This document shows, piece after piece, positions 16,610 to 32,778 of a stretch of DNA of 64,000 nt. A model generated the notes under the pieces. The model worked only from the letters and a program-made list of their open reading frames with translations. It did no database searches and was not told where the DNA came from. Source of the stretch: Actinomycetes bacterium (GTDB lineage: Bacteria > Actinomycetota > Coriobacteriia > Coriobacteriales > JAEZXW01); the NCBI GenBank assembly GCA_023419515.1, contig JAEZXW010000028.1, positions 6,411-70,410 of the forward strand. The letters are read 5' to 3'. Position 1 is the first letter of the stretch, and each line of letters begins with the position of its first letter. The position numbers and the translations under genes are program-made.

Positions 16610-17596
16610 CTACCCGAGTCGCTCCTGACGAGCCTTGCGATACGCCAAGTCTGAGGTAATCATTTCATCGAGTGTCCTTGTTGCCTTCCAGCCTAATACC
16701 TCATAAGCGCGGCTTGGATCAGCGGTCAGCGCTGCGGGGTCACCGTCGCGGCGCGGTCCTTCAACAAACGGAACATCAATGATCTTTTGCGTAGCCTCAA
16801 CCACCTCACGCACCGAATAGCCGGTGCCTGATCCGAGGTTTATCGTGAATGATTCCTTGCCATCAACCAGGTGTTGAGCACCGAGGATGTGAGCCTGGAC
16901 GAGATCGGTGACGTGGATGTAGTCGCGAATGCAGCTGCCATCGGGGGTGGGGTAATCGGTACCAAAGATCGTCATGCTCTCACGGATACCGAGCGCCGCC
17001 TGCAGCGTCACGGGGATGAGGTGTGTGATCTGGTCTTTGTACAGACCAATCTTGAGTGAATCATCGGCACCAGCAACATTAAAGTACCTAAAGATTCCCC
17101 AGGTCATGTCATGAGCGCGACAAACCCAGCGGATCATGTCTTCAGCGGCAAGCTTCGATGCGCCGTAGGGATTGATCGGCTTGCACTCATCGTCTTCATG
17201 GCACACGCCATCAGCCTCGCCATAGACGGCGGCCGTCGAAGAAAAGATGACATGCTTGACGTTGTGCTTCATCATCGTCTCAAGCATAACGCGCACGCCT
17301 TCAACGTTGTTGTGATAGTAGGTCAAAGGCTGGGTAACGCTTTCGGGAACCACGAGCTTCGCCGCAAAGTGCATAACGGCATCGAAGGGTTTCTCGGCAC
17401 ACTCGACGCGAAACACATCATCAAATTGGGCGGGATTTAAGGTATCACCCAGATAAAAGCGGGCGTCAGGGTGGATCATCTCGCGGTAGCCCGTCGAGAG
17501 GTTGTCGTAGATGACGACCTCATGCCCAGCCCTAATGAGCTCAAAGACAGCATGGCTTCCGATGTATCCTGCGCCACCAACAACAAGAACTTTCAT
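16610..17596 (-). CDS. galE: UDP-glucose (or UDP-GlcNAc) 4-epimerase
   Basis: MKVLVVGGAGYIGSH Rossmann fold, YGASKLAAE (YxxxK), and GalE-like sequence over the full length. Confidence 0.9.
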   Translation of the reverse strand: MKVLVVGGAGYIGSHAVFELIRAGHEVVIYDNLSTGYREMIHPDARFYLGDTLNPAQFDDVFRVECAEKPFDAVMHFAAKLVVPESVTQPLTYYHNNVEGVRVMLETMMKHNVKHVIFSSTAAVYGEADGVCHEDDECKPINPYGASKLAAEDMIRWVCRAHDMTWGIFRYFNVAGADDSLKIGLYKDQITHLIPVTLQAALGIRESMTIFGTDYPTPDGSCIRDYIHVTDLVQAHILGAQHLVDGKESFTINLGSGTGYSVREVVEATQKIIDVPFVEGPRRDGDPAALTADPSRAYEVLGWKATRTLDEMITSDLAYRKARQERLG

Positions 17597-17662
17597 GATT
17601 TCCCCTAACCAATCAGCATATGATCTGATTGAGCGTGTGATGAATCGTTTGTACCGCAGCGT

Positions 17663-18772
17663 TTATGCTGAGCTCGTTTTGTAGTATTCCGTGAGCTTTG
17701 TGGTATCGATTGTACTCCTATATACCTGACGAGTGGGGTGATCTTTCACCTTGGCAAGCCACGGCGGCAAAAGCCCCTTGAGGGTACCCAGACCATAGGC
17801 AGTGTGCAGGGCAAAAAAGACAAAAGGCAACAACAAGAAGGTCGCATAGAGTTTTTTGGCACTGAGGGCTGCCGTGATCGTCATGACGATACAGGCGAGC
17901 GCGTAGAGACCAAGCAGTGTAATGAGCATCCACTTGCACCAGAATATGGCAACGATGATCGAGGCGATGAGCGTTAGGACAAAGGCAAAGGGTACGAGGT
18001 GAAAGGTGCTCACACAGCCAGGTTGTGCAAAGAGTGTCTTGCCCATCCAAAAGCCGTTACTAAACTTTTGCTTGATCATGCGGCTGAGGCTTGACCTGAT
18101 GTGCTGGTGCGAGACGATCGCGGGATCAAACCAGATGGTATAGCCATGCTGTCTGATGCGATAGCTCATGTCGTTGTCTTCCGCGCGATGGAGACGCTCG
18201 TCATAGATGCCGACGGTATCGTAGACACTCATGCGATAGAGCCCGTGAAATACTGAGTCAACTGCGTGTTCCTTGAGGCTATTGCTACTGCGCCGATAGG
18301 CTGCAATTGAGCTGCCAAAGAGGGATTCTTCAGCTGCGTGCAGCATGGCACTAAAGGCGGATTTATCCTTGGTAAAGGTAGGGCGCATGCCGCCGACTGC
18401 ATCGTGGCCGCGCTCTATCGCCGCGACTGATTTCTCAATAAAGTCGGCATCGAGGGTCGCGTGAGCATCGACTCGCACAAAAAGCTCGCCTTCGGCAAGC
18501 GCGAGCGATTTGTTGACACCTTGGGGGACTGGTCGCTCGTTGTTATCGAGAATGGCGATACGATGATATTCGTGCTGATGAGCACGGGCAAACTCATGCA
18601 TGAGCTCGAGGGTGCGGTCGGTCGATGCGTTATCGACCATCACAAGCTCAATGCGTTCCTTTGGGTAGGTTTGTGCGAGGATGGTCGCAAAGCAGTCGTC
18701 GAGGTGGCGCTCCTCGTTGTAGGCGACGAGAGCAAGGGTGATGTATGCCGATTGGCGTGCGGAAGTATTCAT
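17663..18772 (-). CDS. Family 2 glycosyltransferase with C-terminal TM helices
   Basis: ITLALVAYNEERHLDDCFATILAQTYP..VMVDNASTDRT, plus AEDNDMSYRIRQHGY. There are 3-4 C-terminal TM helices. Confidence 0.8.
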   Translation of the reverse strand: MNTSARQSAYITLALVAYNEERHLDDCFATILAQTYPKERIELVMVDNASTDRTLELMHEFARAHQHEYHRIAILDNNERPVPQGVNKSLALAEGELFVRVDAHATLDADFIEKSVAAIERGHDAVGGMRPTFTKDKSAFSAMLHAAEESLFGSSIAAYRRSSNSLKEHAVDSVFHGLYRMSVYDTVGIYDERLHRAEDNDMSYRIRQHGYTIWFDPAIVSHQHIRSSLSRMIKQKFSNGFWMGKTLFAQPGCVSTFHLVPFAFVLTLIASIIVAIFWCKWMLITLLGLYALACIVMTITAALSAKKLYATFLLLPFVFFALHTAYGLGTLKGLLPPWLAKVKDHPTRQVYRSTIDTTKLTEYYKTSSA

Positions 18773-19461
18773 CGGTTGACCTCGGATGATGGGGATTGCG
18801 TCCCGGGGATGGCGGAGCTGACCTCAGAGCCAAGCTCACTTGATGCGGTGTGAGCCACGGTTGGCTCTTCGACCTCGTTGACGTAGATGTCCTTGCGCAG
18901 CAAGACCACTAAAAACGTCCTCAAAAAGACCTTGAGATCCATCAAAAAGCTGAGGTGGTCGACGTAGTAGATATCGAGCTTGAGCCGCTCTTTCCAAGGA
19001 ATCGCGTTACGCCCGTAAACCTGGGCATACCCAGTTATACCTGGCTTGACCTCGAGTTTGCGAGCCTCGTCTCCCTCATACAGCGTTGCCTCGATTAAGT
19101 CGTCGGGGCGTGGGCCGATGATGCTCATCGTGCCGTTGAGGACGTTGATAAGCTGCGGCAGTTCGTCGAGGGAGGTCGCGCGCAGGATCTTGCCCACGCG
19201 AGTTTGGCGTGGATCATCCTTTGAGTTGAAGGTCGATCCGTCACTCGTGCGCAAGTCAGGCGCATTCACCTTCATCGAGCGAAACTTGAACATCTTAAAT
19301 GGCTGGTGATCTTTGCCCATGCGATCAGCGTTGTAAAACACCGGTCCGTGATCATCGAGCTTGATGGCAAGGGCGCAAATCAGCATGACCGGCAGAGTGA
19401 TGGGCAGGCTGATAAGCACAAGCAGGATGTCAAAGATTCGCTTGATGACGTGCTGGTACAT
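18769..19461 (-). CDS. Small monotopic polyprenyl-phosphate sugar-phosphate transferase (PglC/WbaP C-domain type), the initiating enzyme
   Basis: KRIFDILLVLISLPITLPV..LDDHGPVFY..FKMFKFRSM..DELPQLINVLNGTMSIIGPRP. It overlaps the downstream GT2 gene by 4 nt. Confidence 0.85.
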   Translation of the reverse strand: MYQHVIKRIFDILLVLISLPITLPVMLICALAIKLDDHGPVFYNADRMGKDHQPFKMFKFRSMKVNAPDLRTSDGSTFNSKDDPRQTRVGKILRATSLDELPQLINVLNGTMSIIGPRPDDLIEATLYEGDEARKLEVKPGITGYAQVYGRNAIPWKERLKLDIYYVDHLSFLMDLKVFLRTFLVVLLRKDIYVNEVEEPTVAHTASSELGSEVSSAIPGTQSPSSEVNR

Positions 19462-19488
19462 AACCGTCCTTGGTTGCTTGCTTGGATT

Positions 19489-20727
19489 TTATCGAGGTGC
19501 GAGCGCTAAAGTCTGCTCGATGATGTAGTCGATCTGATCATCGGTGAGCAGTGAATAGAGCGGCAGGGTTACTTCGTTTTGATACTGGTTAAACGCATTC
19601 GGGTAGTCCTCGATGCGATAGCCGAGTTTTTTATATGCCGTAAAGCACGGCAGCGGTTTGTAGTGTACATTGGTTGAGATGCCAGCCCCTGCCATCTGCT
19701 CAATGAACTTATTGCGTCCAGCCTCGTCGGTTTTAAGCAGGCGCAGCAGGTAGAGATGACCCGATGAGATGTTGTGCTCATCATAGTGGTTGAGATAAGC
19801 AAAGCGCTCATCATCGGCAAACGCCTCGTTGTAGCGTTCGATGATTGTCCTGCGACGGTCGAGCATCTTGGCATAGCGGGGCATTTGAGCAACGCCAAGA
19901 GCTGCGGCAATGTCGGGCATGTTGCACTTGTAGCCGAGGATTTCGATGTCATATTCCCAGGCACCGGGCTTGGTTTTGGCAAGCGCATCTTTGCTCTGAC
20001 CATGCAGTTGCCAGAGCATGAGCTGGCGATAGATCTCGTCATGCGACATAAGCCCCGACAAAAAGTCATCGCGCCAGGTGATCGCTCCGCCCTCAGCCGT
20101 CGTGAAGTTTTTTACCGCGTGGAATGAGAACGAGGAGATGTCAGCGATATTACCTGCCATCACGCCGTTTTGCGAACCACCAAAGGAGTGAGCAGTGTCT
20201 CCCAAGACAAGCGGTCGACCCAATGCCTCTTGGCGCTCGTTGGCGGGGTTAAAGCCAGCGCGCTCAACACCTGCCTTGATCGCAGCAAAGAGCTTGCTGT
20301 AATCGATGCAACGACCGCCGAGGTCGACTGGGATGATCGCCTTGGTCTGCGGAGTGATCGCACGCTCAAGCGCCTCGTAATCCATTTCAAAGCCACCATC
20401 TTGGGTGTCGATCAACACGGGTCGGGCGCCGACGTGCGCGGCAACCGAAGCTGATGCCGTATAGGTATAAGCACAGGTCAAGACCTCATCTTTATGGCGC
20501 AAGCCCATGAAGCGCAAGACGTTTTCCATACCGGTGGTGTTGGAGGAAAAAGTGACTGCCTGAGGTGTTTGGCAAAGCTCAGCGATGAGGCGCTCAAGCT
20601 CTTTGGTCTTGGGACCTGTGGTGATCCACCCCGACTGTAGCGCCTCGACAACCTGGTCGATTTCTGCCTGCGTGATGTCGGGAGGAGAAAACGGGATGTT
20701 CATTTTTGGCTGAGGTGAGGTGCTCAC
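19489..20727 (-). CDS. DegT/DnrJ/EryC1-family PLP sugar aminotransferase
   Basis: FSPPDITQAEIDQVVEALQSGWITTGPK and SFHAVKNFTTAEGG (PLP Lys). I propose the start at GTG 20727, which has GGAGG 5 nt upstream and overlaps the tarJ stop (GTGA). The ORF is open to 20739. Confidence 0.85.
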   Translation of the reverse strand: MSTSPQPKMNIPFSPPDITQAEIDQVVEALQSGWITTGPKTKELERLIAELCQTPQAVTFSSNTTGMENVLRFMGLRHKDEVLTCAYTYTASASVAAHVGARPVLIDTQDGGFEMDYEALERAITPQTKAIIPVDLGGRCIDYSKLFAAIKAGVERAGFNPANERQEALGRPLVLGDTAHSFGGSQNGVMAGNIADISSFSFHAVKNFTTAEGGAITWRDDFLSGLMSHDEIYRQLMLWQLHGQSKDALAKTKPGAWEYDIEILGYKCNMPDIAAALGVAQMPRYAKMLDRRRTIIERYNEAFADDERFAYLNHYDEHNISSGHLYLLRLLKTDEAGRNKFIEQMAGAGISTNVHYKPLPCFTAYKKLGYRIEDYPNAFNQYQNEVTLPLYSLLTDDQIDYIIEQTLALAPR

Positions 20728-21737
20728 GAAAGCCTCCATTCAAAGACAGTCTTAAACGGTGTTTCGAGGTCTTGTAAAAATGCGCGCGAAATATCGTCGA
20801 TGGCGCGAACAGGCTCAACGAGGTTCACGATCTTGTTGAGTCGCTCAGCGAGATTAGTGGTGCGATAGAGGCGCGCGACCTCTTCAAAGTCGGCACGGCC
20901 ACTCCTCGATGATCCAATGAGCGTCAAGCCCTTCTCGAGTACCATACGGGTGTTGATTGCGACCGGATATTCGGAGACACCCATGAGAACAATGCTTCCC
21001 TGCGGCATGATGGTGTCGATGATCTGGTCAATGGCATAGCGCGAACCCTCGCCGCCCGTGCACTCAAAGCAGTGGTCAAACTGGGGAGTGGCAGTGAGCT
21101 TGTCGGTGAGGCAGGTGTGGTCTGCCATCGTAAAGAAGGCGAGTTTTTCGAGGTGGCGTCCAACAATCGTGATCTCAATATCGCTGATGAGTGCTCGTAG
21201 GGTGCTCGCGAGGATATAGCTCAAATTACCATCACCCCAGATGGCAACGTGACCACGGTGGCGATGCGCCGTATTTTGCCAGCGGGTGATGGCGTGAATG
21301 GCAACCGATGCCATTTCGGTAAAGGCGAGTGCCGGTCCTTGGTCGGGCACGGCGACCACGCGGTCAGGGCTCAAATCAACGAGCTCACGAGTAAAGCCAT
21401 CGAGACCCGAGGATAAAAACCCACTGCCGGTCTGGTAGTTCTCAAAGATGTCTTCCTTGGGCTCACCAGGGCAGTTGGGCACCATAGCAACAAAATCGCC
21501 GGGCTTAAAAGTCTCAGTTGGGTCATGCACCACATAGCCAGCCGCTTCGTGAATGATGCACATGGGGAGTTTCTTCTTGAGCACCGACTCAGGCCTCAAT
21601 CCCCTAAAGTAGCGTTGATCTGCGTGGCAGATTGACATGCGATCAGGGCGGATAATGACCGATGAGCTCATATCGAGCTCCTTAAAGTCAACGCTGATCG
21701 TGCCCGGTGCCTTGAGACGATAGAGGGTGCTGATCAT
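20724..21737 (-). CDS. tarJ: Ribitol-5-phosphate 2-dehydrogenase-like (TarJ-type) Zn alcohol dehydrogenase
   Basis: The N-terminus LYRLKAPGT..VIIRPDRMSICHADQRYFRG..LPMCIIHEAAGYVV matches the TarJ pattern. It overlaps the tarI homolog by 4 nt. Confidence 0.75.
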   Translation of the reverse strand: MISTLYRLKAPGTISVDFKELDMSSSVIIRPDRMSICHADQRYFRGLRPESVLKKKLPMCIIHEAAGYVVHDPTETFKPGDFVAMVPNCPGEPKEDIFENYQTGSGFLSSGLDGFTRELVDLSPDRVVAVPDQGPALAFTEMASVAIHAITRWQNTAHRHRGHVAIWGDGNLSYILASTLRALISDIEITIVGRHLEKLAFFTMADHTCLTDKLTATPQFDHCFECTGGEGSRYAIDQIIDTIMPQGSIVLMGVSEYPVAINTRMVLEKGLTLIGSSRSGRADFEEVARLYRTTNLAERLNKIVNLVEPVRAIDDISRAFLQDLETPFKTVFEWRLS

Positions 21738-22522
21738 AACTGATCCTTTTGGGAGCCTGCGTCGATCTTATCAAGCCTGCCGATTAAGGCCTGGGCGATG
21801 CGATAGTCCATCTCGGTAGTGAGCTTGATGTTGGTGGCATCTCCTTCGACGATCTTGACAGGCATGCCTCTGAGCACGAATGCCTTGCAGGCGTCGGTGA
21901 GTGAGTGAGCTTCCTCTTCGCTCAAGCCTGCATATGCAGCGATCAGCTGCTTGAGCTGAAATGATTGAGGGGTCTGTCCCTGATACATCTCAGTGCGAGG
22001 GGGGATGTCGCTGATGATTTCGCCGTCTTGCGCGGCAACGATGGTGTCAGTCGCAGGGATAACGGTGTCACAGGCGCCAAAGTTGCGCGCAGCCTCGATG
22101 TTGTCCCTGATCACGCGGCTGCTCACGAAGGGGCGCACCGAATCATGCGTGAGGATGATGACGTCATCGCCAATCTTGCCCTCAAGTGCCTCCAGGGTGG
22201 CGCTGTTTTTATCGGCAAGTTCAATATTCTCGAATTTAAGCACAGCGTCGATGATTGCCTTGATGGTATCGGTACGATCCTCGCCACCAGCAACAACATG
22301 AACGCGATCTGCGCAGCGATGCTGAGCCAAGACCTCTTGCGCATGACCGATCCAATTGGGGTGGACACCAAGGATGACTTGATCGATCTCGGGCACCATC
22401 AAAAACTTTTGAACGGTGTGAACAAAAACAGGAGCATCGCCGAGCATTAAAAATTGCTTTGGCAGGTTGCCCACCTTCATGCGAGAACCAACGCCGCCAG
22501 CAAGAATTGCTGCGTAAATCAC
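21734..22522 (-). CDS. tarI: IspD/TarI-family cytidylyltransferase (ribitol-5-phosphate cytidylyltransferase-like)
   Basis: MIYAAILAGGVGSRMKVGNLPKQFL, plus pairing with the TarJ-like dehydrogenase. Confidence 0.8.
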   Translation of the reverse strand: MIYAAILAGGVGSRMKVGNLPKQFLMLGDAPVFVHTVQKFLMVPEIDQVILGVHPNWIGHAQEVLAQHRCADRVHVVAGGEDRTDTIKAIIDAVLKFENIELADKNSATLEALEGKIGDDVIILTHDSVRPFVSSRVIRDNIEAARNFGACDTVIPATDTIVAAQDGEIISDIPPRTEMYQGQTPQSFQLKQLIAAYAGLSEEEAHSLTDACKAFVLRGMPVKIVEGDATNIKLTTEMDYRIAQALIGRLDKIDAGSQKDQL

Positions 22523-22759
22523 TACAACTCCTTATCGCTTGTTAATAGGGTCTTTAAGGATAGCGCGTATTAAATTTTCATGTGGTCAAAGATGATAAAG
22601 TTACATAATCCAAGCAGCCCTTTACGGTATCGCACGTGAGAAACGCGGCAGCTGAATGATGGCATACGTGGTGCAGGGCACTTGTGGACAAGGGGTGTTT
22701 GTGTGCGGAGCCTTTGCGCGGGTATGGTGCGTGGATGTAAGACGAGAAAGACGGATGAC

Positions 22760-23578
22760 ATGGGCAGGGATGGCATGGGTAATCACAAGGGATTTGTTCG
22801 AGAGATCAAAGACGGGCTGCGCTCTTGCCCGGTGACTCGACGTGCCTATGAATGGCTTTATGGAATCAAGCAAGCGCAGCAAGACAAGCGTGATCAAGCA
22901 CATCTGCATGCTCATGGCGAGCAAACCGTGGCTGCCTTTTGCGAGCTCTGTCAAGGGGGCGGTTTTGAGGTCTTTGCGGTCTATGGCACCCTGCTCGGAG
23001 CGGTGCGCGAAGGTGGTATCATCGGCCATGACCTCGACGTTGATCTCGGTATTCGTGAGGATGAGCAGGGTTCTCAGCTCGCAGGTTTGGCGCACTACCT
23101 CGTTGACGAAGCTGGCCTTACGTTTGAGCGTGGGTTTGTCGTAGATGGCGCGCTGCTCGAGGCCCGCTTTTTGTTCGACGACATCGGTATTGATGTCTTT
23201 GCCCTGGTATCGCCCGAGGACTATGAGTTTCCTGCGCCACCGGATCATCTGCCTGATGAGTGTCTCGCAATATGTTGGTTTGAGGTTGATGACGAGCGCT
23301 TCGGTTTTCACTCACCGTGTCGAACGACTTACGTCGATTATTTTGATGCGCAGTGGTTTGCTTCGATGCAGCCAACCGTCTTTGGCGATGGTCATGAGGT
23401 TGTTATTCCAGCAGGCTACCAGGGATTTCTCGAGAGCTTATATGGGTCAAGCTGGAGAGTTCCTGATCCGTGCTGGAATCCACACGAGTCAATGATAACC
23501 CGCAGAAGCGAGCGGTTCTGCCGTGTGATTACGAGCCTTGATGAGCTTGGATCTGCGGGCGCTTGCGATAAATCATAA
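22760..23578 (+). CDS. Divergent LicD/fukutin-family nucleotidyltransferase-fold phosphotransferase
   Basis: FAVYGTLLGAVREGGIIGHDLDVDLGI aligns with the LicD core GxLLGAVRHxGFIPWDDDIDV. The start is uncertain (ATG at 22760 or 22775; ORF open from 22682). The 3' end overlaps the wzx 3' end by 50 nt, in convergent orientation. Confidence 0.55.
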   Translation: MGRDGMGNHKGFVREIKDGLRSCPVTRRAYEWLYGIKQAQQDKRDQAHLHAHGEQTVAAFCELCQGGGFEVFAVYGTLLGAVREGGIIGHDLDVDLGIREDEQGSQLAGLAHYLVDEAGLTFERGFVVDGALLEARFLFDDIGIDVFALVSPEDYEFPAPPDHLPDECLAICWFEVDDERFGFHSPCRTTYVDYFDAQWFASMQPTVFGDGHEVVIPAGYQGFLESLYGSSWRVPDPCWNPHESMITRRSERFCRVITSLDELGSAGACDKS

Positions 23579-24848
23579 ACGCAATGATTCGATAGACAAG
23601 ACAGACATATTCCGAGACAATCGTCGTAATGACCACGGTTGTCACGGTAAAGTTTCCGCTGATAAAAAACGTTGCCAGCAAAATTGCATGCACGGCTGCT
23701 CCCACGAGTACCGAGCGATTGACCGCATTGGAGCCACCGAGCGGAGCAAGCGCCGGATATCCAAAAAGGTAGGTTGGCAGGGTTACCGCCACAATTGGCA
23801 TCATAAGAGCGAGGATAGGGCCTGCCGCCTCAAAACGATCGCCCAAAAACCACGTACAGAGCGGAGTCGCAAAGATCGCTACCACGCTGCATCCCACAAT
23901 GATGATGGGCATGGCGATGATCAGGACTTTCTTCATAAATCGGTAGTCCTTATTCTTGACCATGTAGGGGTAGAGGCTATCGGCAATGGGACTAAACACC
24001 TGGCACATGACTCCCAGGATCTTATCAGCTGAGGTATAGGCGCCAAGAGCAAGTGAGGCGGGTGGATAGATAAAGCCAAGTAAGAAGGTGTTGGTGTTGC
24101 TTGTCACCGTGGTGGCGATGCGCGAGATAAAGAAGAAGGCAGATTCTTTCATGGTTTGAAAGCAGTAGGCAAGACTCGGAAAAACCAGCCGGTAACGCAG
24201 CTTTTTGACCATGTGCCAGTAGACAAAGCCGACCGCACCGAGGCCGCCCACGAGATTCAGCGTCGGGACAACCCAGTAGTCTTGCTCGGTACGTAAAAAG
24301 ATAAAGATGCAGACGGTGAAAAATGCCTTGATGGCGACCGATCGATAGGTGATGACCTGCATTTCTTCGATGCCGCGATAAAAGAAGTCGAGCATAAAGC
24401 TCGGGACGATGGCAGCGGCATAACAGAGCAGGTAAAACCATGGATCAGAGCTCATCTTATCCCAGCCAAAGGCAAGGGCAGCAACAATACCGAGGCCAGC
24501 CAGAGCAAAGATGAGCTTGTTGATGGTGACGGCGCCGACGATTTTTTCAATCTCATGGCGGTCGTCCTGAAGACGCGCGATTTTCTCGGTTGCACTCAAG
24601 AGGTAGCCAAACTCAATGACGAGCGAAAAATACGCCATGGTCGCCATTGCCCAGCCGAGCTTACCGTAGAGCTCTGGCCCTAAGACACGGGTTTGATACG
24701 GCACGGTGATGAGCGCAAAAAAGTAGCCAGAAAACACCAAAAGGTACAGGAAAAAGGTGTTTTTAAGCATGCGTAGTCGCTGGGGGTCAAGCGAGGTTTT
24801 ATCAGCGATTTTATTGATCAGCTGCCTGAATGATCGTGTTATTTTCAA
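23529..24848 (-). CDS. wzx: Wzx-type (MOP superfamily) polysaccharide flippase
   Basis: About 12 TM helices. N-terminus: LKNTFFLYLLVFSGYFFALITVPYQTRVLGPELYGKLGWAMA. Confidence 0.75.
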   Translation of the reverse strand: MKITRSFRQLINKIADKTSLDPQRLRMLKNTFFLYLLVFSGYFFALITVPYQTRVLGPELYGKLGWAMATMAYFSLVIEFGYLLSATEKIARLQDDRHEIEKIVGAVTINKLIFALAGLGIVAALAFGWDKMSSDPWFYLLCYAAAIVPSFMLDFFYRGIEEMQVITYRSVAIKAFFTVCIFIFLRTEQDYWVVPTLNLVGGLGAVGFVYWHMVKKLRYRLVFPSLAYCFQTMKESAFFFISRIATTVTSNTNTFLLGFIYPPASLALGAYTSADKILGVMCQVFSPIADSLYPYMVKNKDYRFMKKVLIIAMPIIIVGCSVVAIFATPLCTWFLGDRFEAAGPILALMMPIVAVTLPTYLFGYPALAPLGGSNAVNRSVLVGAAVHAILLATFFISGNFTVTTVVITTIVSEYVCLVYRIIAFMIYRKRPQIQAHQGS

Positions 24849-24961: not shown

Positions 24962-26062
24962 GTGCGCATCAGTGTCATCGTGCCATATTTTAATGTTGAG
25001 CGATACGTACGCTGTTGCCTTGAGTCGCTTTGCGCGCAGCAAGGTTTGTCAGGCGTTGAGCTCGAGGTGATCCTCGTCAATGATGGCTCGACCGATGGCT
25101 CTCGCGATATCGTGCATCGGTTTGTTGATGAAGTGAGCGCCGATGAGATGAGCAGGGCGCCTATCTCGGCGTCGTCTGTCTCCACGCCATCTGTTCCAAC
25201 GCTTTCGTTTCTCCATCATGACCAGGCAAATGCAGGGCTTTCGGTCGCCCGCAACAACGGGCTTGCCAGGGCAACGGGCGACTACTTTTTCTTTCTCGAT
25301 AGTGATGATGTCTTGCATCCGCAGTGTTTTGCACGGTTTTTACAGGTCGCAGCCGAGCATCCAGATGCGCTTCTTGTTTGCCAGCTCCAAGACTTTGATG
25401 CCGCTTTTGATCAGCCAACATTTGAGCGTCTTGTCGATAAGGTAAGTTCGATCTATCGTACCCAAGATGAAGCAATTGCCGAGCTCTATGAGCGTGAAAC
25501 CCTCGTGCCGATGACGGTGGCGTGTAGTAAGTTCTATCCCGCGCGTTATCGAGATTGCATTCACTTTGCCCCGGGCAAGCTGCATGAGGATGTTGGTCTT
25601 GCCCTCGATCTGCTGCTTGCCTCACCAGCAGGAATTTATCGCATCGATGAGCCGCTCTACTACTATCGGAGCAATTCTTCATCGATCATGAATACGCCCT
25701 CGGCACGCCATCTCGATGCCGTTGATTTTTATGATCAGCATCTCAAGAGCCTGCTTGCGCATTATGGAGAGAAGGACGAACATCAGGCGAAAGTTCTTGC
25801 GTGTGCCGCGGGGTTTGCAGCGCTCAAGACCTTCATGAACTACGGGGGTCACTTGCTCAAGGTGTATCACGGGCTCGCTCAGCAAGACAAGAATCAGGTT
25901 GATCATGCGCTTGCTGTGACCAAAAACATTGCGGTCTACCTGGATAAAACTCGGCCGGTTGCTTATTCTCGCAAAGATGACCTGTTGCTGACCGCTTTTT
26001 TACGAGCGCCCCAGGTCTCATCGCGGTTGTATGCTGGCCTCCTCGATCTCCTCAAGAAATAG
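24962..26062 (+). CDS. Family 2 glycosyltransferase
   Basis: GTG start with AAGGGGGA upstream. ISVIVPYFNVERYVRCCLESL..VILVNDGSTDGS..FFFLDSDD. Confidence 0.8.
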   Translation: MRISVIVPYFNVERYVRCCLESLCAQQGLSGVELEVILVNDGSTDGSRDIVHRFVDEVSADEMSRAPISASSVSTPSVPTLSFLHHDQANAGLSVARNNGLARATGDYFFFLDSDDVLHPQCFARFLQVAAEHPDALLVCQLQDFDAAFDQPTFERLVDKVSSIYRTQDEAIAELYERETLVPMTVACSKFYPARYRDCIHFAPGKLHEDVGLALDLLLASPAGIYRIDEPLYYYRSNSSSIMNTPSARHLDAVDFYDQHLKSLLAHYGEKDEHQAKVLACAAGFAALKTFMNYGGHLLKVYHGLAQQDKNQVDHALAVTKNIAVYLDKTRPVAYSRKDDLLLTAFLRAPQVSSRLYAGLLDLLKK

Positions 26063-26076: not shown

Positions 26077-27636
26077 GTGAAAGAAGTGTTGTCTCCCATG
26101 GATCTAGCTCTTAAAAGATTTGCCCGATGCCTTGTTGACCCGCGGGTGTGCATCAGTGCTTATCTGACGTTTTTTATGCTCCACCAGATCCAGGTCGTGA
26201 ACTGGTTTCTCGGTGGGGTGCAGACGGTGTTGGTGGCATGGTCTGCCGTTGTGCTTGTTTTTCTGTTCATCAAGCAGCGCGAGTATTTTTACTGCAAGCC
26301 GCTTTGGTGGTTTGTGCCTGTCATTGGCGCGGCGCTCATCTCGCTCGTTGCCAACTATCAGGTCGAGCTCGTCTCGCAGGTAAAGACCTTCATTCTGCTT
26401 GTTTTGGCAGGGCTGTTGTTTCTGCCGATGGGCAGGCAGATTGCTGAGTCATCCAACCGTATGCGCGATGCCTTTGTCGTGTTTTTTGCGAGCATGTTCA
26501 TCATCTTTGTACAGGGGATTTTGTCGATTGTCATGCTGGTGCTGCGCTTTGCCTTTCGCGCGACGATCGATGGGCGCTTTGTCGAGATCGGCATGCTCGC
26601 TTTCAATTACACGCAAGGGCACGTAAACACTTACATCCTCTTTGGCATGAACGTCAATTCAAACCATGCAGTTGTGTACGGGTTTATTGGCCTCATGCTT
26701 TCGTACTGGTTCTATCGTCACCGCTCGGCGATTTTTGGCAGTGCTCGCGCTTGCAGAGCCTTTGAGCTCTACTTTTGGATTAACCTGGTACTGCAGCTCA
26801 TTTACGTCGTGCTCGCAAATTCGCGAGGCGCTCATTATTCAATCGCGCTGGCGCTCGTCGTGTTCATGCCGCTTGCGACGTTGATGCTGACTCGATCACG
26901 GCGGATCGCTCTGCGCCTTGGGCTTGCGGTGGGGATGACCCTCGTTTCGCTCATGCTCTTTGCGGGACTCGTTGCCTCAGTCGAAAAAGCGACACAGGTC
27001 TACATGGGTATGATGCCTGGTTTGGTCTATGACGAAACGATTCGGCCGAGTGGCAATTTGGGCGAGGATAGTGAGGGTACGCAGGCTGCGCAGGTGGATT
27101 ATACCAAGGGATCGCTTTTGCACACTCAGCGTCTATATTTGTGGAAAGAAGCGATTGAGCTTTGGCAGCACCATCCCATCACCGGTATTGGTGCTTATAC
27201 CTCGGCACATTACGCCAAGACTGACGTTGTTTTTGCCGATACCCACTACCTCGAGAAGGGCAAGGCAATTCACAACGCCTATCTCGACGTGCTGGTTTAC
27301 TACGGAATCATTGGATTTATTGCCTACGTTGGTTACTTTGGCTACTGCTTTACGAGGCTGGTTAAGCGCATTCGCAGGCGTGAGACTGACATTGATGACC
27401 TGTTGCTTGGCTTTATGTTGCTTGTGGTACTGGGTACGCAGTTTTTCTTGACCGATGCTTTTATTGGTTTGGACTACACAGCGGCTATCATCTTCATGGT
27501 GATGACTTACCTTGCTTGCCGCTCGAATGTGAGTCCGCAGCTTGAACCTCGCTTGGTGTGGACGTCCTGCTATGAAGCGGTTGATCGTGAGGATTGCCCA
27601 GCTCGTGAGGATGACCTAGCGCAGGTGAACGCCTGA
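26077..27636 (+). CDS. O-antigen polymerase/ligase-family (Wzy_C-type) membrane protein
   Basis: More than 10 TM helices, plus a periplasmic loop with ..SRGAHYSIALA.. and YLWKEAIELWQHHPITGIG..HNAYLDVLVYYGIIGF. Confidence 0.65.
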   Translation: MKEVLSPMDLALKRFARCLVDPRVCISAYLTFFMLHQIQVVNWFLGGVQTVLVAWSAVVLVFLFIKQREYFYCKPLWWFVPVIGAALISLVANYQVELVSQVKTFILLVLAGLLFLPMGRQIAESSNRMRDAFVVFFASMFIIFVQGILSIVMLVLRFAFRATIDGRFVEIGMLAFNYTQGHVNTYILFGMNVNSNHAVVYGFIGLMLSYWFYRHRSAIFGSARACRAFELYFWINLVLQLIYVVLANSRGAHYSIALALVVFMPLATLMLTRSRRIALRLGLAVGMTLVSLMLFAGLVASVEKATQVYMGMMPGLVYDETIRPSGNLGEDSEGTQAAQVDYTKGSLLHTQRLYLWKEAIELWQHHPITGIGAYTSAHYAKTDVVFADTHYLEKGKAIHNAYLDVLVYYGIIGFIAYVGYFGYCFTRLVKRIRRRETDIDDLLLGFMLLVVLGTQFFLTDAFIGLDYTAAIIFMVMTYLACRSNVSPQLEPRLVWTSCYEAVDREDCPAREDDLAQVNA

Positions 27637-28706
27637 TGAGGTCAATATTGCCGCCGTTTATGACTGTGGTGATTGCGTACTTTAATGCGAGTAAGCACCT
27701 CGATTCGATCGAAGCAGTGCTCACGGCACAGCGCGAGTCATTGTGCAAGGCAGTCGCCCAATGTACTTCTCATTCTGGCGATGCTGAGTTTACCTCCGAT
27801 ATCGAAGTTATCATCGTTGATGACTGTTCGTCTGATGCCGAGAAGGTCGCACTTTTATCGCGCGCTGAGAGCCACGACTGGCAGGTCGTCGAGCTTGCAC
27901 AAAACGGTGGGCCTGGTGTTGCTCGCAATAAAGGTATAAGCAAGGCGACTGGTAAGTACCTGCTTTTTATGGATGCCGATGATGCACTGGCTCCCCATGC
28001 CTGCGGCGCTCTGTATCGTGAGTATCTTCAAGCGCAGGCAGCCTTGGCTGGTGAGCCGGCCGATGTGATCTGCTTTGACTACACCATGATCTCACCCCAT
28101 GTGACCTTGCCATATTCAACTATTCCTCAGGCACAAGCTGGCGTGGTTGATGCTCGCCAGGCGCTGGCGACAGTTCGTGGCTCGACTTTTGGTAAATGCT
28201 ATCTCAGGAGTCTGATCACCAGGCATAACCTGCAGTTTGGCACCTTGCGTCGTCACGAGGATACGGCGTTTACCAAGTCGGCAGTCTGTTGGGCAGAGCG
28301 GATCTGGTACACCAAGGAGTCGCTCTATGAATATCGGATGACGCCTGGATCGCTCACGCATGACACGCAGCTTGAGTCGTTTGAAACCTCATTCGATGCG
28401 CTGAGGATCATCAAGGCGTCGACCCAGGGCAGGCATCAGCTTGAGGTGCAATACGTTTATATCGTTGAGGTCATCATGTCGTGCGCGATGAAGTTTTACC
28501 TGCTCGATATTAGTGCGGATGAGGCTCGTGAGTTTTATGATCGGATTGATCGCGAGGAGCCAGGCTGGTGGTACAACCCTTACTTAGGTCAGGCATCTGC
28601 TCGCTATCGTTTGATCGCATGGCTGGTGCGTAAGCGTCAAACGAGGCTGATTAAGGCGATGATGTGGTGCGATAAACTCGCCCGAGCGGCGCTGCGCATC
28701 ACGTAG
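27636..28706 (+). CDS. Family 2 glycosyltransferase
   Basis: TVVIAYFNASKHL..VIIVDDCSSD..GPGVARNKGISKATGKYLLFMDADD. The ATG overlaps the stop of the preceding gene (TGATG). Confidence 0.75.
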   Translation: MRSILPPFMTVVIAYFNASKHLDSIEAVLTAQRESLCKAVAQCTSHSGDAEFTSDIEVIIVDDCSSDAEKVALLSRAESHDWQVVELAQNGGPGVARNKGISKATGKYLLFMDADDALAPHACGALYREYLQAQAALAGEPADVICFDYTMISPHVTLPYSTIPQAQAGVVDARQALATVRGSTFGKCYLRSLITRHNLQFGTLRRHEDTAFTKSAVCWAERIWYTKESLYEYRMTPGSLTHDTQLESFETSFDALRIIKASTQGRHQLEVQYVYIVEVIMSCAMKFYLLDISADEAREFYDRIDREEPGWWYNPYLGQASARYRLIAWLVRKRQTRLIKAMMWCDKLARAALRIT

Positions 28707-28786: not shown

Positions 28787-29704
28787 ATGAGAAGACTGAT
28801 TACACAAAACCCTGAGTGTCGCGTTACCGATCGCAAGCTCACCCGCATGCGCGAACTGCAGCTTTTGATCACCGATCACGTTATTGCATTTTGCAAGGCG
28901 CACGATATTGAGGTGGTGCTTGATTGGGGGTCGCTGCTCGGCGCGGTGAGGCATCAGGGCTACATTCCGTGGGATGACGATATCGACCTCAGCATGACGC
29001 GCGAGAATTACAATAAGTTCATCGAGCTTTATTCGCAGGCAGATACCAGTCCTTTTGAGATTCGCTGCCCGGAGGTGTATGCAGGCTGCCCGCAGATTTT
29101 TATCAAGGTGGGGCTTAAAGACACCCTGTTTGTGCTCTTGGATTCAACGTCACCCGAAACATGTGCACAGGTGGCTATCGATATTTTTGTGCTGGATGAG
29201 GCGCCTCGCGATCAAAAGGTTTGCAAGAAAGACCTCGTTAGCATCGCGCTCAATCGTCAGCTATTCATCTCGTCGCAGATGTGGCGAGCAGGCAATTTAC
29301 AGAGTAGAGCCAAGGCGGCGATCTTTACTCTCGTTCGCATCGTGCTGCATATCGGCACAAGCTTTGTTCCGCGCATGAAGTTTTATGAAGCGATACTTAA
29401 GCGAGTCGAGCACCTGCGAGAGCTTGCACAGGAGCGCCCCGTATCTGAACGCACCTTTATTGGGGTGGAAGATCCGATCATCAACTTTAGGCTTGATCCG
29501 GCGTGGCTCGGTGATAGAGAGACATTTTCGACGGTTGAGTTTGAGGGTCGTCAGTATCCCGCCCCACGTGATGTGCATCAGTGGTTGACTGCTCAGTACG
29601 GCGATTACATGACGCCACCTCCACCTGAGAAGCGCTATGGTCACAAGCCCGAGGGCGTGGTGTTGGGCCCGTGGGAAGATGAGGATCCCAAGAGTTGTTG
29701 GTAG
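28787..29704 (+). CDS. licD: LicD-family phosphotransferase
   Basis: LTRMRELQLLITDHVIAFCKAHDIEVVLDWGSLLGAVRHQGYIPWDDDIDLSM is the canonical LicD core. Confidence 0.85.
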   Translation: MRRLITQNPECRVTDRKLTRMRELQLLITDHVIAFCKAHDIEVVLDWGSLLGAVRHQGYIPWDDDIDLSMTRENYNKFIELYSQADTSPFEIRCPEVYAGCPQIFIKVGLKDTLFVLLDSTSPETCAQVAIDIFVLDEAPRDQKVCKKDLVSIALNRQLFISSQMWRAGNLQSRAKAAIFTLVRIVLHIGTSFVPRMKFYEAILKRVEHLRELAQERPVSERTFIGVEDPIINFRLDPAWLGDRETFSTVEFEGRQYPAPRDVHQWLTAQYGDYMTPPPPEKRYGHKPEGVVLGPWEDEDPKSCW

Positions 29705-29857
29705 GGTGGTTTGTAGTTGTGGAGTGGCTGCCGCGAAGCGATCATACGGCGTGACTCACGGTCGCGTGTCAGGATGCGCCGATGTCGTGCTGGCAAACCC
29801 CTAGCTTTGCCGTCGTCAGGTAATTATTCACCGTGCTTCACAGTCACGCGTCCGAAC

Positions 29858-30775
29858 TTATCGCGAGCCGATAGCGTCTTTGCCCGTCTGAGCCTTAGAA
29901 ATGGCTCGCAGATGTGGAAACTCTTGATAGTATGGGACATCTGGATTGAATTTAGTGAGTACGTGATGCGGAACTTGCTGCTCTTGAGGTGGCAGTTTGA
30001 GGTAGTCACCAAACGCCATGGAAAGATAGTGGTGATAGCCTTCCATCACGTCGATTAGCATACCCTCAAACGGCAGTTGAATCGTCCTCTTAAACCACTC
30101 GGCATTAAACTCGTTTTGCATGTAGTGAGGGCCTGAGCAGAGCTCAGTGATGTAGTCACTTTCATCAAACGGATATTGCGTCATTTTACGCTCAAACCAG
30201 CGCGCCAGTTTTAACCGCACTTTGTTTGATGGTACGCAGGCGAGCAGCGCGCGCGAGCCAAATTCTACGACTTTGCCGTGATTCACAGGAATGAGCTGCG
30301 AATAAAAGAGCGAAAAGAGTAAAGCCCAGAGTTTTTGGAGCTTGCGAGCAAACGTCCCTGGTTTCGCTGAGCCATCGAGGGCGAGGATGTCGAGGGTGAT
30401 GCACTGCGGCATAACTCGGTGCTGCTGGTAGGGAAGGACAAGCGTCGTCTCTTCATCTCCGAGCTTGAGCATGAGGTCTCCGGTGAGCATATCGTCGTGG
30501 GTGAGGATGAGATTATAGCGGGGATGGCCGTCCTCTCTCCAGATTTGTTGGAGGCGTTCGTAATCAGGGCGCGGCATAAAAACATCGATATCGTCATCCC
30601 ACGGGATAAAGCCCTGATGACGCACGGCTCCAATGCATGAGCCTCCACACGCCCAAAATCGCAGGTTGTGTTTATGACAGTAGTCAGCAAATACGCGATA
30701 GATCTCGAGTGAACACTGCTGCAGCGCCTTGAGTTCGCGGGGAGAAAGCTGGTGGGTAAGAGCGGATGTATTCAT
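29858..30775 (-). CDS. licD: LicD-family phosphotransferase
   Basis: LSPRELKALQQCSLEIYRVFADYCHKHNLRFWACGGSCIGAVRHQGFIPWDDDIDVFMP. I preferred the start at ATG 30775 (AAGG upstream); the ORF is open to 30814. Confidence 0.85.
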   Translation of the reverse strand: MNTSALTHQLSPRELKALQQCSLEIYRVFADYCHKHNLRFWACGGSCIGAVRHQGFIPWDDDIDVFMPRPDYERLQQIWREDGHPRYNLILTHDDMLTGDLMLKLGDEETTLVLPYQQHRVMPQCITLDILALDGSAKPGTFARKLQKLWALLFSLFYSQLIPVNHGKVVEFGSRALLACVPSNKVRLKLARWFERKMTQYPFDESDYITELCSGPHYMQNEFNAEWFKRTIQLPFEGMLIDVMEGYHHYLSMAFGDYLKLPPQEQQVPHHVLTKFNPDVPYYQEFPHLRAISKAQTGKDAIGSR

Positions 30776-31107
30776 CGGTTGCCTTATCGTGGTCTGAGGC
30801 GCAAAGACGCTCATTGATGTGTTGGTCGTTCATGAAAAATTTCTTCTTATGATAAATCATGTCGAGATTGAGCAGCATGTGTGAGCAGCATACATGCATA
30901 TAAAATGCTTGGTTTTTGAGGTGGTTGCCTGAGAGGTGCGGGGTGGAGTGCTAAGCTTTCGAGAACACAAGGAGTTTGGGTTTGTATGCATTTGAGTTTG
31001 CAGGTGCTTTAGTCCGTTGATGCTTTGTGTGGTGGTGATCGTGTTTTTCGCGCGCCGTATTGATATGGCGTGTTGGAGGTAATGAGGCTGTGGCCAATTG
31101 TTGCGCA

Positions 31108-32778
31108 ATGTCAGAGCGCTTGAATTTCACCCATCGGTTTCTTGCAAAAGTCTTGGCAGTGATGCCCGGGGTGTTTGTCGGTATCCTTGGTGTCTACGAG
31201 GTCATGGTCGTGCGCAGTATAGTGCAGCCCGTGTTGTTTGGCGCGATTGGCTTTGCGGCGGTGTTGACGGTAGTGCTCATCATGTTGAACAAGCGGCGGT
31301 GTGGCGTGTGGCTTTTGGATGAGGGATGTAAGGAGCCAAGCCGGGCTCATAATCATCATGGTGTGCAAGGTGATTCTGGCGCGCTGATCCGCCCTCGGTT
31401 TCAGGATCGCTTTCTCAAGCCAACTGTGCTTGGTTGGATGCTCGTTGCTTTTTGTGCAACGCAGTTTTTGTCGATCTGCATCAACTGGGCATTTGGTTTC
31501 TGGCAAAACACCATCGATATGTTGGCACTTTTTGTTCTCACTGGTGTCGGACTAGTGAGCGCATTTCACAGCGATACCAGGCGACTGATGATCTGGTCGC
31601 TCGTGGTTTTTGTTGAGCTCATTGCGCTTTTTTGGACGCTCGTTTCGGTGTGGTGTCTCGTTACGGGATCATCGGTTTTGGTCTTTGACATAGCGGGCGA
31701 TGTTGGTCTGCGTATGGGATATTTTCAGCACCGATTTTGGGGTGTTGTCAATCCCAATATTCAGGCGGCGGTTGCATTTACTGCGATTGCGTTTTTGCCT
31801 GTGATTGCAAGGCTAGTTCGTGAGAGGCGACCTCAGGCAAATCGAGCGCCGATCGCGGTGCTCTTGGGGTGCTTAGGGTTGTTGCAGCTTGCGACCATTG
31901 TTGTGCTGCAGTCACGAGGGCTTTTGCTTAGTTTGACGGTGACGTTGTTTATTGCCGCCTGGTGTTTGACACCGCGTCATGCGTGGCAGCGAACAGGTAC
32001 GGCAGTTGTTGCGACCGCTCTTGGCGTTGGTTTGATCAGTGCCGGGTCGTGGTGCTTTGCGACGTTTCATCCGCTGACAGATCGCCCGTTTGAGGTGTTT
32101 GTTCAAAAGTCACTCGTGAGTTACGAGCGAATCGTTGCCGAGACAAACGAGGCAAACTGGGCGCTTTCGATTGCAGACATCTCGTCTCAGCAAGAGATAG
32201 CCAGCGAACTAGCAACCGATTCAGCCGCCGAGTCTACAGCCGGCTCAGCCGCCGAATCGCAGCAATCCAAGGCCACCCAAGCGCAGGTAGAAAGTGACGG
32301 CAAGGTTGATGCTCGCCTCTATCATACGACCAGCTCAGGTAGGATTGCGCTCTGGAAAAACGGACTTGCCATGATTGCTAAGCAGCCTTGGTTTGGCTAC
32401 GGCATGCGCGGCGCATTTGACCATTTTGACCAGTTCTTTACGCCATATTGGATCGCCAACTCTGTCATCGGTGGCAACCTGCACAACATGGCGCTGACCG
32501 TTGCGCTTAACTCGGGCGTGGTGGGGCTGATGAGCGCTGTGGTCTTGCTCGTCATGATCTTGGTGTACTGCGGGCGCGGTTTGCGTCTCGTGGCAAAAGA
32601 GGGCGTGGGGAGACATATCATGGTGGCAGTATTTGCCCTTGTGGTGATCGCACTGGTGATGCTTCAGGCGGTTGAGAGCATGATTTTCTATCGCTTTATG
32701 ATTGTGGCGCCAATCTTTTGGACGAGCGTGTTTGCACTGGTAGGATCCTTGGTAGCTCCTCGCAGCGATCAGTCCTAG
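31108..32778 (+). CDS. Second O-antigen polymerase/ligase-family (Wzy_C-type) membrane protein
   Basis: Polytopic. LQSRGLLLSLTVTLFIAAW, GRIALWKNGLAMIAKQPWFGYGMRG..NLHNMALTVALNSGVVGL. The start is uncertain (GTG 31090 or ATG 31108; ORF open from 31060). Confidence 0.65.
   Translation: MSERLNFTHRFLAKVLAVMPGVFVGILGVYEVMVVRSIVQPVLFGAIGFAAVLTVVLIMLNKRRCGVWLLDEGCKEPSRAHNHHGVQGDSGALIRPRFQDRFLKPTVLGWMLVAFCATQFLSICINWAFGFWQNTIDMLALFVLTGVGLVSAFHSDTRRLMIWSLVVFVELIALFWTLVSVWCLVTGSSVLVFDIAGDVGLRMGYFQHRFWGVVNPNIQAAVAFTAIAFLPVIARLVRERRPQANRAPIAVLLGCLGLLQLATIVVLQSRGLLLSLTVTLFIAAWCLTPRHAWQRTGTAVVATALGVGLISAGSWCFATFHPLTDRPFEVFVQKSLVSYERIVAETNEANWALSIADISSQQEIASELATDSAAESTAGSAAESQQSKATQAQVESDGKVDARLYHTTSSGRIALWKNGLAMIAKQPWFGYGMRGAFDHFDQFFTPYWIANSVIGGNLHNMALTVALNSGVVGLMSAVVLLVMILVYCGRGLRLVAKEGVGRHIMVAVFALVVIALVMLQAVESMIFYRFMIVAPIFWTSVFALVGSLVAPRSDQS

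Follow-up and report, generated by a model that had tools for sequence, protein, structure and literature searches.

A single-locus, pneumococcus-like pathway predicted for a ribitol phosphate-containing polymer in a probable actinobacterium

In this work we analysed 64 kb (64,000 nucleotides, hereafter the window) of the 73.6-kb contig JAEZXW010000028.1 (assembly GCA_023419515.1, Actinomycetes bacterium), which carries at positions 16610–32778 a compact set of 14 genes for a surface glycopolymer. Homology searches confirm this region as one Wzx/Wzy-type locus with predicted synthesis of cytidine diphosphate (CDP)-ribitol. They suggest that it probably directs the assembly of a pneumococcus-style (type IV) polymer, made on undecaprenyl phosphate by the Wzx/Wzy route from phosphodiester-containing repeat units that would include ribitol phosphate. 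The argument draws on an aminotransferase closely related to a pneumococcal teichoic acid enzyme, on a ribitol phosphate gene cassette conserved in other genomes, and on Actinomycetaceae loci built around the same core genes. The absences reported below hold for the window only, in which Pfam scans covered non-overlapping open reading frames (ORFs) of at least 150 amino acids.

Organisation of the locus

The genes, identified by Pfam, NCBIfam and PDB profile or sequence matches, are the following.

16610–17596, minus strand: galE, uridine diphosphate (UDP)-glucose 4-epimerase, last gene of the tarI operon (TIGR01179 equivalog 366 bits, cut-off 262; Pfam Epimerase 1e-50)
17663–18772, minus strand: GT2a, family-2 glycosyltransferase (Pfam Glycos_transf_2 3e-21)
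18769–19461, minus strand: initiating transferase, a small PglC-type polyprenyl-phosphate phosphoglycosyltransferase of 230 amino acids (Bac_transf 4e-65)
19489–20739, minus strand: DegT, Spr1654-type nucleotide-sugar 4-aminotransferase, AATGal-type (DegT 6e-82; PDB 6EWJ)
20724–21737, minus strand: tarJ, ribulose-5-phosphate reductase (PDB 6XH9, E 2e-86 over residues 1–334)
21734–22522, minus strand: tarI, ribitol-5-phosphate cytidylyltransferase (NF001183 298 bits, cut-off 166; best structure 2VSH, 236 bits)
22682–23578, plus strand: LicDa, divergent LicD/FKRP-fold phosphotransferase (Pfam LicD 29.7 bits, cut-off 22.6)
23529–24848, minus strand: Wzx-type (MOP/PST) flippase (Polysacc_synt 1e-37, 130 bits)
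24962–26062, plus strand: GT2b, family-2 glycosyltransferase (Glycos_transf_2 5e-28)
26077–27636, plus strand: WzyA, Wzy_C membrane protein (Wzy_C 68.6 bits, cut-off 31.7)
27636–28706, plus strand: GT2c, family-2 glycosyltransferase (Glycos_transf_2 2e-20)
28787–29704, plus strand: LicDb, full-length LicD phosphotransferase (Pfam LicD 3e-31, 109.7 bits)
29858–30814, minus strand: LicDc, LicD phosphotransferase (Pfam LicD 2e-43, 149.7 bits)
31060–32778, plus strand: WzyB, second Wzy_C/WaaL-fold membrane protein (Wzy_C 53.1 bits, cut-off 31.7)

An earlier note on this DNA, made from the letters alone, had listed the same 14 genes, and the profile searches place all of them at or very near the positions given there; the gaps are too small for any further gene. 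Homology shows TarJ and TarI to be the predicted makers of CDP-ribitol. The initiating transferase has PglC-type diNAcBac-1-P transferases as its best solved relatives (140 bits), and GT2a ends in two C-terminal hydrophobic helices (hydropathy peaks at residues 259–277 and 308–326). The locus is flanked by an HhH-GPD repair gene at one end and by serS and the gene of a YegS-type lipid kinase at the other, and its proteins are nearly unique among 15 billion sequences in a cluster look-up. An identical TarJ was found on two metagenome contigs of 1.5 kb, in which the tarI-tarJ-degT junction is also the same.

Translational coupling runs along the whole series tarI, tarJ, degT, initiating transferase and GT2a. 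The 4-nucleotide overlap of tarJ and tarI proposed earlier can be read directly as ATGA, and so can the proposed GTGA coupling of tarJ to degT, in which the TGA of tarJ overlaps a GTG at 20727; this GTG is the likely start of degT, as it is preceded by GGAGG and five bases (20737–20724 down to the end of GTGA). The degT and initiating transferase genes are 27 nucleotides apart, and the latter overlaps GT2a by 4 nucleotides. The alternation of transcription units described earlier is clear, and strand changes give six units rather than the "at least five" counted then. The three licD genes are likewise present, with some revision of their ends: the start of LicDa is ambiguous (22682, 22760 or 22775), and the LicDc ORF reaches 30814, the 30775 given before being Met14 of that ORF. 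The protein-collection record of WzyB begins 10 codons inside the TTG at 31060. The LicDa and flippase genes are convergent, and their 3′ ends overlap by 50 bp (23529–23578).

An aminotransferase of the pneumococcal type

DegT matches PDB 6EWJ, the pneumococcal Spr1654, with an E value of 6e-128 and 430 bits, 201 of 404 aligned residues being identical (50%), while the next-best structure, an ArnB-type enzyme, scores 187 bits. Spr1654 is an essential aminotransferase proposed to make the sugar AATGal for pneumococcal teichoic acid (PMC5936713). In Streptococcus pneumoniae and S. oralis, Spr1654, Spr1655 and Spr0092 are listed as the enzymes by which the AATGal precursor is made and loaded on the lipid carrier; the UDP-N-acetylglucosamine 4,6-dehydratase function is, in our reading of that work, that of Spr0092, and the Spr1654 gene adjoins that of Spr1655 (PMC4649388). 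The pneumococcal repeat consists of AATGal, glucose, phosphodiester-linked ribitol, two N-acetylgalactosamines (GalNAc) and two phosphocholines (PMC12017771). Its synthesis is attributed to one initiating transferase and three glycosyltransferases, with LicD3 as the ribitol phosphate enzyme and LicD1 and LicD2 as those for phosphocholine; the genes are dispersed over several loci, and teichoic acids of this type were described as unique to mitis-group streptococci (PMC4649388).

The likeness to this pathway, which the earlier note had put forward as an analogy, is stronger than could be known from the letters, given that DegT is half identical to Spr1654 and is encoded beside an initiating transferase. 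We compared the locus with Spr1654, Spr1655, Spr0091, Spr0092, TarIJ, LicD1-3, TacF, TarP/Q and TacL, and in design this pathway is its nearest counterpart. Both systems have TarI and TarJ, a small initiating transferase with an AATGal-type aminotransferase encoded next to it, and a glycosyltransferase paired with a LicD protein that adds, or here would add, ribitol phosphate; both have one initiating transferase, three glycosyltransferases, three LicD proteins and one flippase; in both a lipid-linked repeat unit would be flipped and then polymerised; and both include a protein with WaaL-like features, here the predicted fold of WzyB, pneumococcal TacL being O-antigen-ligase-like (PMC6456293). 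They differ in that here all genes are in one 16-kb locus, with no licABC, dehydratase or LCP gene nearby, in the absence of an identified TarQ-like partner, in the flippase (a Wzx of 439 amino acids here, the 14-helix TacF there), and in the probable actinobacterial host, in which the donors for two of the LicD proteins cannot be read from the sequence.

The earlier note had pointed out that the 4,6-dehydratase and the N-acetyltransferase that normally accompany such an aminotransferase are not in the locus. The first absence extends to the whole window, where neither Pfam nor tblastn found a PglF/CapD-type (Polysacc_synt_2) gene over 64 kb. The second is also correct, but it would leave no gap if the sugar is AATGal, and is indeed expected, because AATGal keeps a free 4-amino group (PMC12017771). 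A first sugar of the bacillosamine (di-N-acetyl) type is less likely, as no acetyltransferase is present and DegT scores 430 bits with Spr1654 against 111 bits with PseC-type enzymes (PDB 2FN6/2FNU).

LicDc and a conserved ribitol phosphate cassette

A scan of 185,579 species genomes with TarJ yielded 51 other tarJ loci (46–53% identical), most of them in gut Clostridia, others in Eggerthellales (for example Slackia). A LicDc-type protein is encoded in 39 of them, with 41–48% identity and 247–288 bits to LicDc, but only 48–87 bits to LicDb, and in 36 of these 39 loci the LicDc orthologue is upstream of tarI, at most 480 bp away. As a rule a GT2a-like gene comes next upstream of the LicDc-type gene, at a distance of up to about 100 bp, the GT2a homologues of the tarJ loci being mostly 37–45% identical to the protein described here (four are at 29–31%). 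Most of the other tarJ loci examined have a single LicDc-type gene beside tarIJ; in Eggerthellales such as Slackia, tarIJ is accompanied by other LicD types. The conservation of this GT2a-licD-tarI-tarJ cassette supports the view that LicDc, which has a nucleotidyltransferase motif in common with FKRP, is likely to be a CDP-ribitol:glycan ribitol-phosphate transferase acting on the sugar added by GT2a. LicDc would parallel the ribitol phosphate roles proposed for pneumococcal LicD3 and for EF2168 or EF2175 of the Enterococcus faecalis EPA system (PMC4649388, PMC7188991), and gene coupling provides good indirect evidence for this parallel. The idea that the LicD proteins of the locus are ribitol phosphate transferases, advanced earlier for all three, is therefore supported for LicDc, with 39 of 51 loci placing its relatives beside tarIJ, and is not secured for LicDa and LicDb.

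In the gut Clostridia (Bittarella, Dorea, Extibacter and Ruminococcus bins) the four proteins of the cassette are 40–52% identical to those of the window, and the cassette would install one ribitol phosphate on a sugar. Cultured bacteria in which a LicDc-type gene accompanies tarIJ are Bittarella massiliensis, Dorea sp. D27 and Extibacter muris DSM 28560. It forms a single operon there, whereas here it is split over two operons 7 kb apart, and the surrounding genes are unlike those of our locus. One Bacillota genome bin (L017, 1086–8890) contains two tarI-tarJ copies within 8 kb, each following a GT2a-like gene, with a LicDc-type gene only at the first copy.

LicDa, LicDb and their relatives in Actinomycetaceae

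All three LicD proteins score above the Pfam cut-off and have an invariant D-x-D-x-D motif. LicDa matches the Pfam LicD family across 36 residues only (90–125) and has no more than 17 weak homologues among 5.8 billion proteins; its AlphaFold model (pLDDT 85.7) nevertheless finds FKRP in all of its top 13 PDB matches (E 5e-8). As the motif is kept and the model matches FKRP, LicDa is, on homology and predicted structure, a real although very divergent member of the LicD family.

The closest relatives of LicDb (39–41% identity) occur only in uncultured Actinomycetaceae, where their genes are placed right after degT. We compared four such loci from genome bins (L054, L055, L057 and L058), which we did not find described in the literature searched. 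Nine genes are common to these loci and the window locus, in similar order, with the following identities to the proteins of the Actinomycetaceae.

Initiating transferase: 41–43%
GT2a: 43–44%; follows the initiating transferase there
DegT: 49%
LicDb: 39–41%
Flippase: 60–61%
WzyA: 32–33%, to the single Wzy_C gene product, same position
GT2c: 42–43%
GT2b: 35–38%
LicDa: 28–29%, to the product of a short LicDa-like gene

The G+C content is also similar (49–51% in the Actinomycetaceae loci). These loci differ from ours by the presence of a PglF-type dehydratase gene and by the lack of tarIJ, LicDc, galE and a second Wzy_C gene. Furthermore, they encode an NTP-transferase/choline-kinase (APH-like) fusion of 541 amino acids, an NTP-transferase/CobD-like decarboxylase fusion of about 600 amino acids, or both, at 145–1147 bp from the LicDa-like gene; the place beside the donor genes is held by LicDa, or its counterpart, in both kinds of locus. 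The fusion genes are at L054 18767–20392, L058 16723–18528, L057 15030–16871 and L055 16820–18631; the CobD-like domain resembles threonine-phosphate decarboxylase, and an octopine-dehydrogenase-like or ornithine-cyclodeaminase-like gene is found nearby. The fusion proteins look as if they supplied LicD enzymes with unusual CDP-amino-alcohol donors. In the nearest relatives, LicDb- and LicDa-type enzymes thus appear to travel with genes resembling those for amino-alcohol or choline activation and not with CDP-ribitol synthesis, and the window locus looks like an Actinomycetaceae-type core that lacks the amino-alcohol module and has a ribitol module (tarIJ and LicDc) instead.

Similarity to LicDb does not reveal the donor, since the neighbours differ among its relatives at 31–36% identity: a TagD-like gene in Lonepinella, mixed activation genes in Phascolarctobacterium, and a TacF-like flippase gene in Gemella. 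We accordingly rejected reading the LicD donor from sequence, relatives in this range being found with TagD-like, LicC-like or no donor genes. The Slackia piriformis locus has tarIJ, three LicD proteins and a second donor module; in this strain (YIT 12062, L001, 3887–8131) two tandem licD genes are followed by genes for a PhnW/SerC-like class V aminotransferase and for a fusion of a TagD-like cytidylyltransferase with a GFO/IDH/MocA oxidoreductase.

The earlier note had observed that licA, licB and licC are not in the window, and neither Pfam nor tblastn with a LicC-LicA-like query found any. It had concluded that the LicD paralogs install ribitol phosphate in up to three steps per repeat. This conclusion is not supported for LicDa and LicDb, whose relatives belong to loci that lack tarIJ and have other donor genes. 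Two readings of these proteins have to be weighed, which we rate about equal. The polymer may, tentatively, be pneumococcus-like in full, with ribitol phosphate added by LicDc, and with phosphocholine or the phosphate of another amino alcohol added by LicDa and LicDb, whose donors would be made by genes outside the window. The choline-kinase-like and CobD-like fusions beside LicDa-type genes in the syntenic Actinomycetaceae loci, where the flippase is 60–61% identical, argue for it, as do a Slackia genome-bin locus that has tarIJ and ends in a LicC-like fragment, the scattering of the pneumococcal genes (PMC4649388), and the report of Actinomyces species that react with anti-phosphocholine antibodies and have Lic-1 genes (PMC10434233). 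Such a donor gene is nevertheless missing from the 64 kb around the locus, whereas every relative examined has its donor genes inside the locus; moreover, identity to these relatives is just 28–41%, and LicD donors already differ at 31–36%.

It is also conceivable, if rather doubtful, that the polymer is free of choline and that all three LicD proteins use CDP-ribitol or another polyol donor, placing up to three ribitol phosphates in each repeat, perhaps in tandem as FKTN and FKRP do. TarIJ is the sole donor-making module of the locus and of the window, LicDa is transcribed divergently from tarI at a distance of 160–238 bp, the position that its relatives occupy beside donor genes, and FKTN and FKRP add successive ribitol phosphates (PMC4873967, PMC6965139). 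This is countered by the close relatives of LicDb and LicDa, found only in loci without tarIJ and with the fusion genes, by the other tarJ loci, which mostly carry one LicDc-type gene, and by the three-LicD Slackia locus with its second donor module. In addition, the view of the genome is limited to 64 kb.

Flippase and Wzy_C proteins

The flippase (439 amino acids, PF01943) is polytopic, with 11 peaks, several of them overlapping, in a crude hydropathy scan; the sequence search gave no solved relative. Its identity to the Actinomycetaceae proteins (60–61%; L054 10951–12219, L055 10425–11693, L058 10951–12219) is unusual for a Wzx, the other shared proteins being at 28–49%; the flipped units may have a feature in common, or the gene may have been transferred separately.

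WzyA has positional orthologues in the Actinomycetaceae loci, many hydrophobic segments and a large loop, and is likely to be the repeat-unit polymerase. WzyA and WzyB have in common only a core motif (H-N, nine residues, G-x-x-G), and a sequence search of solved structures gave nothing useful for either. WzyB found no homologue but itself at E<=1e-5 in a word-based search, and 263 distant Wzy_C relatives among 1.84 billion representatives with HMMER. Its AlphaFold model (pLDDT 80.2) has the WaaL ligase 7TPG as best PDB match (E 6e-5), followed by FtsW. For WzyB a role as second polymerase and one as WaaL/TacL-like ligase are both conceivable, and the fold does not separate the two; a ligase role is possible because TacL, too, is O-antigen-ligase-like.

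Six alternating transcription units are present, LicDc and WzyB are monocistronic and lack counterparts in the Actinomycetaceae loci, and in other genomes LicDc normally shares an operon with tarIJ. These features would fit two fused or partly decayed loci, with LicDc and WzyB as idle remnants of a second pathway, but this is quite unlikely: every ORF is intact, the catalytic motifs are kept, the composition is uniform, there is a single flippase and a single initiating transferase, and without LicDc or another LicD protein tarIJ would have no transferase.

A proposed pathway

We propose the following order of events. TarJ and TarI would first produce CDP-ribitol. The Spr1654-type aminotransferase would make a UDP-4-amino-4,6-dideoxy-N-acetylhexosamine (AATGal-like), for which a dehydratase encoded elsewhere is required, and the small PglC-type transferase would transfer the AATGal-like sugar to the lipid carrier. 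GT2a would add a hexose, the second sugar, as the acceptor of the phosphodiester, and LicDc would attach ribitol-5-phosphate to it from CDP-ribitol, as suggested by the gene coupling in 39 other genomes. GT2b and GT2c would extend the unit, with a galacto-sugar provided through GalE, which would supply UDP-Gal or UDP-GalNAc. LicDa and LicDb would then add one or two more phosphodiester-linked groups, from a donor that we leave unspecified: the locus makes no donor other than CDP-ribitol, and the relatives of these two proteins travel with amino-alcohol or choline activation genes. Finally, the unit would be flipped by Wzx and polymerised by WzyA, and WzyB would act as a second polymerase or as a WaaL/TacL-like ligase; peptidoglycan or a glycolipid may be the acceptor of the polymer.

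Several observations weigh against this scheme. No 4,6-dehydratase or LCP ligase gene is present in the window, and a chain-length regulator (Wzz or CpsC/D) is missing among its ORFs of at least 150 amino acids. The flippase is a PF01943 Wzx of 439 amino acids and not of the TacF type, TacF having 14 helices and being MurJ-like (PMC13385700). The likeness of LicDc to LicD3 comes from gene coupling and not from direct sequence comparison, and sequence does not decide between donors for LicDa and LicDb. Lastly, instead of a teichoic acid anchored in the wall or membrane, the product could be a capsule.

This last point amounts to reading the locus as one for an ordinary capsule or exopolysaccharide with ribitol phosphate, like certain pneumococcal and S. 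oralis polysaccharides. It overlaps with the other readings, as it implies the same chemistry and differs from them only in the anchoring and role of the polymer; we consider it possible but not probable. Streptococcal capsule loci are known in which a Wzx/Wzy system includes a LicD-family phosphotransferase, such as wcrO (PMC5111408), and no LCP or TacL-type function can be assigned in the locus. However, the window has none of the CpsB/C/D or Wzz-type regulators that Gram-positive capsule loci typically contain, and the best match of the aminotransferase is a teichoic acid enzyme.

An extended form of our type IV scheme can be imagined, in which the polymer is a choline-independent type IV teichoic acid encoded by a single locus, all LicD proteins use CDP-ribitol, one step adds ribitol phosphate to ribitol phosphate as FKRP does after FKTN, the free amine of the AATGal-like sugar makes the product zwitterionic, and WzyB ligates it to a glycolipid. 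Taken as a whole this is speculative and improbable.

Comparison with other systems

Classical wall teichoic acid of the TagF/TarL type (Staphylococcus aureus, Bacillus subtilis W23) also depends on TarI and TarJ for CDP-ribitol, but the locus has no TagO/A/B, TarK/L (TagF-family) or TagGH, and its repeat unit would be built and exported by Wzx/Wzy. We rejected a pathway of that type, as the Pfam scans of the window gave no Glyphos_transf (TagF-type) protein and no ABC exporter fit for TagGH; LCP and Wzz/CpsCD proteins were not found in these scans either. The EPA decoration of E. faecalis, a teichoic-acid-like product of a Wzx/Wzy system, is another parallel: its LicD proteins are proposed to transfer ribitol phosphate, a TarI homologue makes CDP-ribitol, and a single Wzx and a Wzy_C/WaaL-like polymerase are present (PMC7188991). 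The side-chain polysaccharide (PSP) of Lactococcus lactis type D also contains ribitol phosphate (PMC9574508). EPA and PSP, however, decorate a rhamnan backbone, are initiated in another way and have no AATGal-type aminotransferase, and no rhamnose genes are present here. Mammalian FKTN and FKRP have in common with the LicD proteins the LicD nucleotidyltransferase fold and use CDP-ribitol as donor, and FKRP provides the best solved matches of the LicDa model; they are eukaryotic enzymes of the Golgi whose substrate is a protein O-mannosyl glycan, with a sequence identity of only about 20%.

Genomic context

The G+C content of the locus genes, overall and at third codon positions, equals that of the flanking housekeeping genes, so that nothing points to a recent import of the locus by horizontal transfer. 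A promoter and terminator scan gave fewer promoter-like sites than chance would predict, and terminator-like sites (28, against 17 expected) were mostly intragenic and defined no unit boundaries. The 64 kb contain no tRNA gene and no Rfam match at gathering score, including in the 415-nucleotide leader upstream of serS.

The actinobacterial background assumed earlier is plausible rather than proven. At 57400–61815, dnaK, grpE, dnaJ and a gene for a MerR-family (HspR-like) regulator stand in one row, an order typical of Actinobacteria. DnaK has its best solved match at 746 bits, to an entry that we take to be the mycobacterial protein, against about 721 for other DnaK entries, and the closest relatives of the locus are in Actinomycetaceae genome bins. 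The actinobacterial marker WhiB was not found in the window.

Elsewhere in the window, a cluster of hydrogenase maturation genes (hypE-like, hypD, hypF) and, after it, a NikR-type regulator occupy 45725–51723, beside a gene for a protein of 580 amino acids with only a partial phosphoglucose-isomerase match (43805–45547). A solitary family-2 glycosyltransferase of 406 amino acids (Glyco_tranf_2_3, no NCBIfam match) is encoded at 39570–40790, at a distance of 7 kb from the locus and with genes for a QueT transporter and a TauE exporter on either side; it could make a glycolipid or another polymer. At 5125–8350 an Nramp transporter gene adjoins that of a PRC-barrel/MgtE_N/CBS protein of 615 amino acids, for which no MgtE membrane domain was reported and which may be a soluble metal-sensing partner. 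Upstream of the gene for a PIN-domain/TPR protein there is an ORF of 917 amino acids that matches no Pfam family (52566–56567); further ORFs without family are at 10445–11818 (adjoining a HAAS-domain protein gene), 35922–36473 and 56629–57153.

Implications

In the literature searched, loci of this kind are not described in Actinobacteria, except for the Lic-1 genes of some anti-phosphocholine-reactive Actinomyces (PMC10434233). We regard four features as modestly new: the host, the arrangement in a single locus, donor cassettes that appear to have been swapped, and a second WaaL-fold protein that is an orphan. Together with the Actinomycetaceae loci and the GT2a-LicD-tarIJ cassette of gut Clostridia, the locus suggests that the pneumococcal-type design is more widespread and more modular than its description in streptococci, and that within it LicD enzymes and the genes for their donors are apparently exchanged as cassettes. 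Current understanding is unchanged unless the chemistry of the polymer is determined. If a free amine and phosphodiesters do occur in one polymer, the latter would be zwitterionic; zwitterionic polymers of other commensals, such as Bacteroides fragilis PSA and the pneumococcal type 1 capsule, have known immune effects. If WzyB ligates the polymer to a glycolipid, the product would resemble lipoteichoic acid, a type for which the phylum is not known. The locus also offers three bacterial LicD proteins with which donor choice in the FKTN/FKRP family could be probed.

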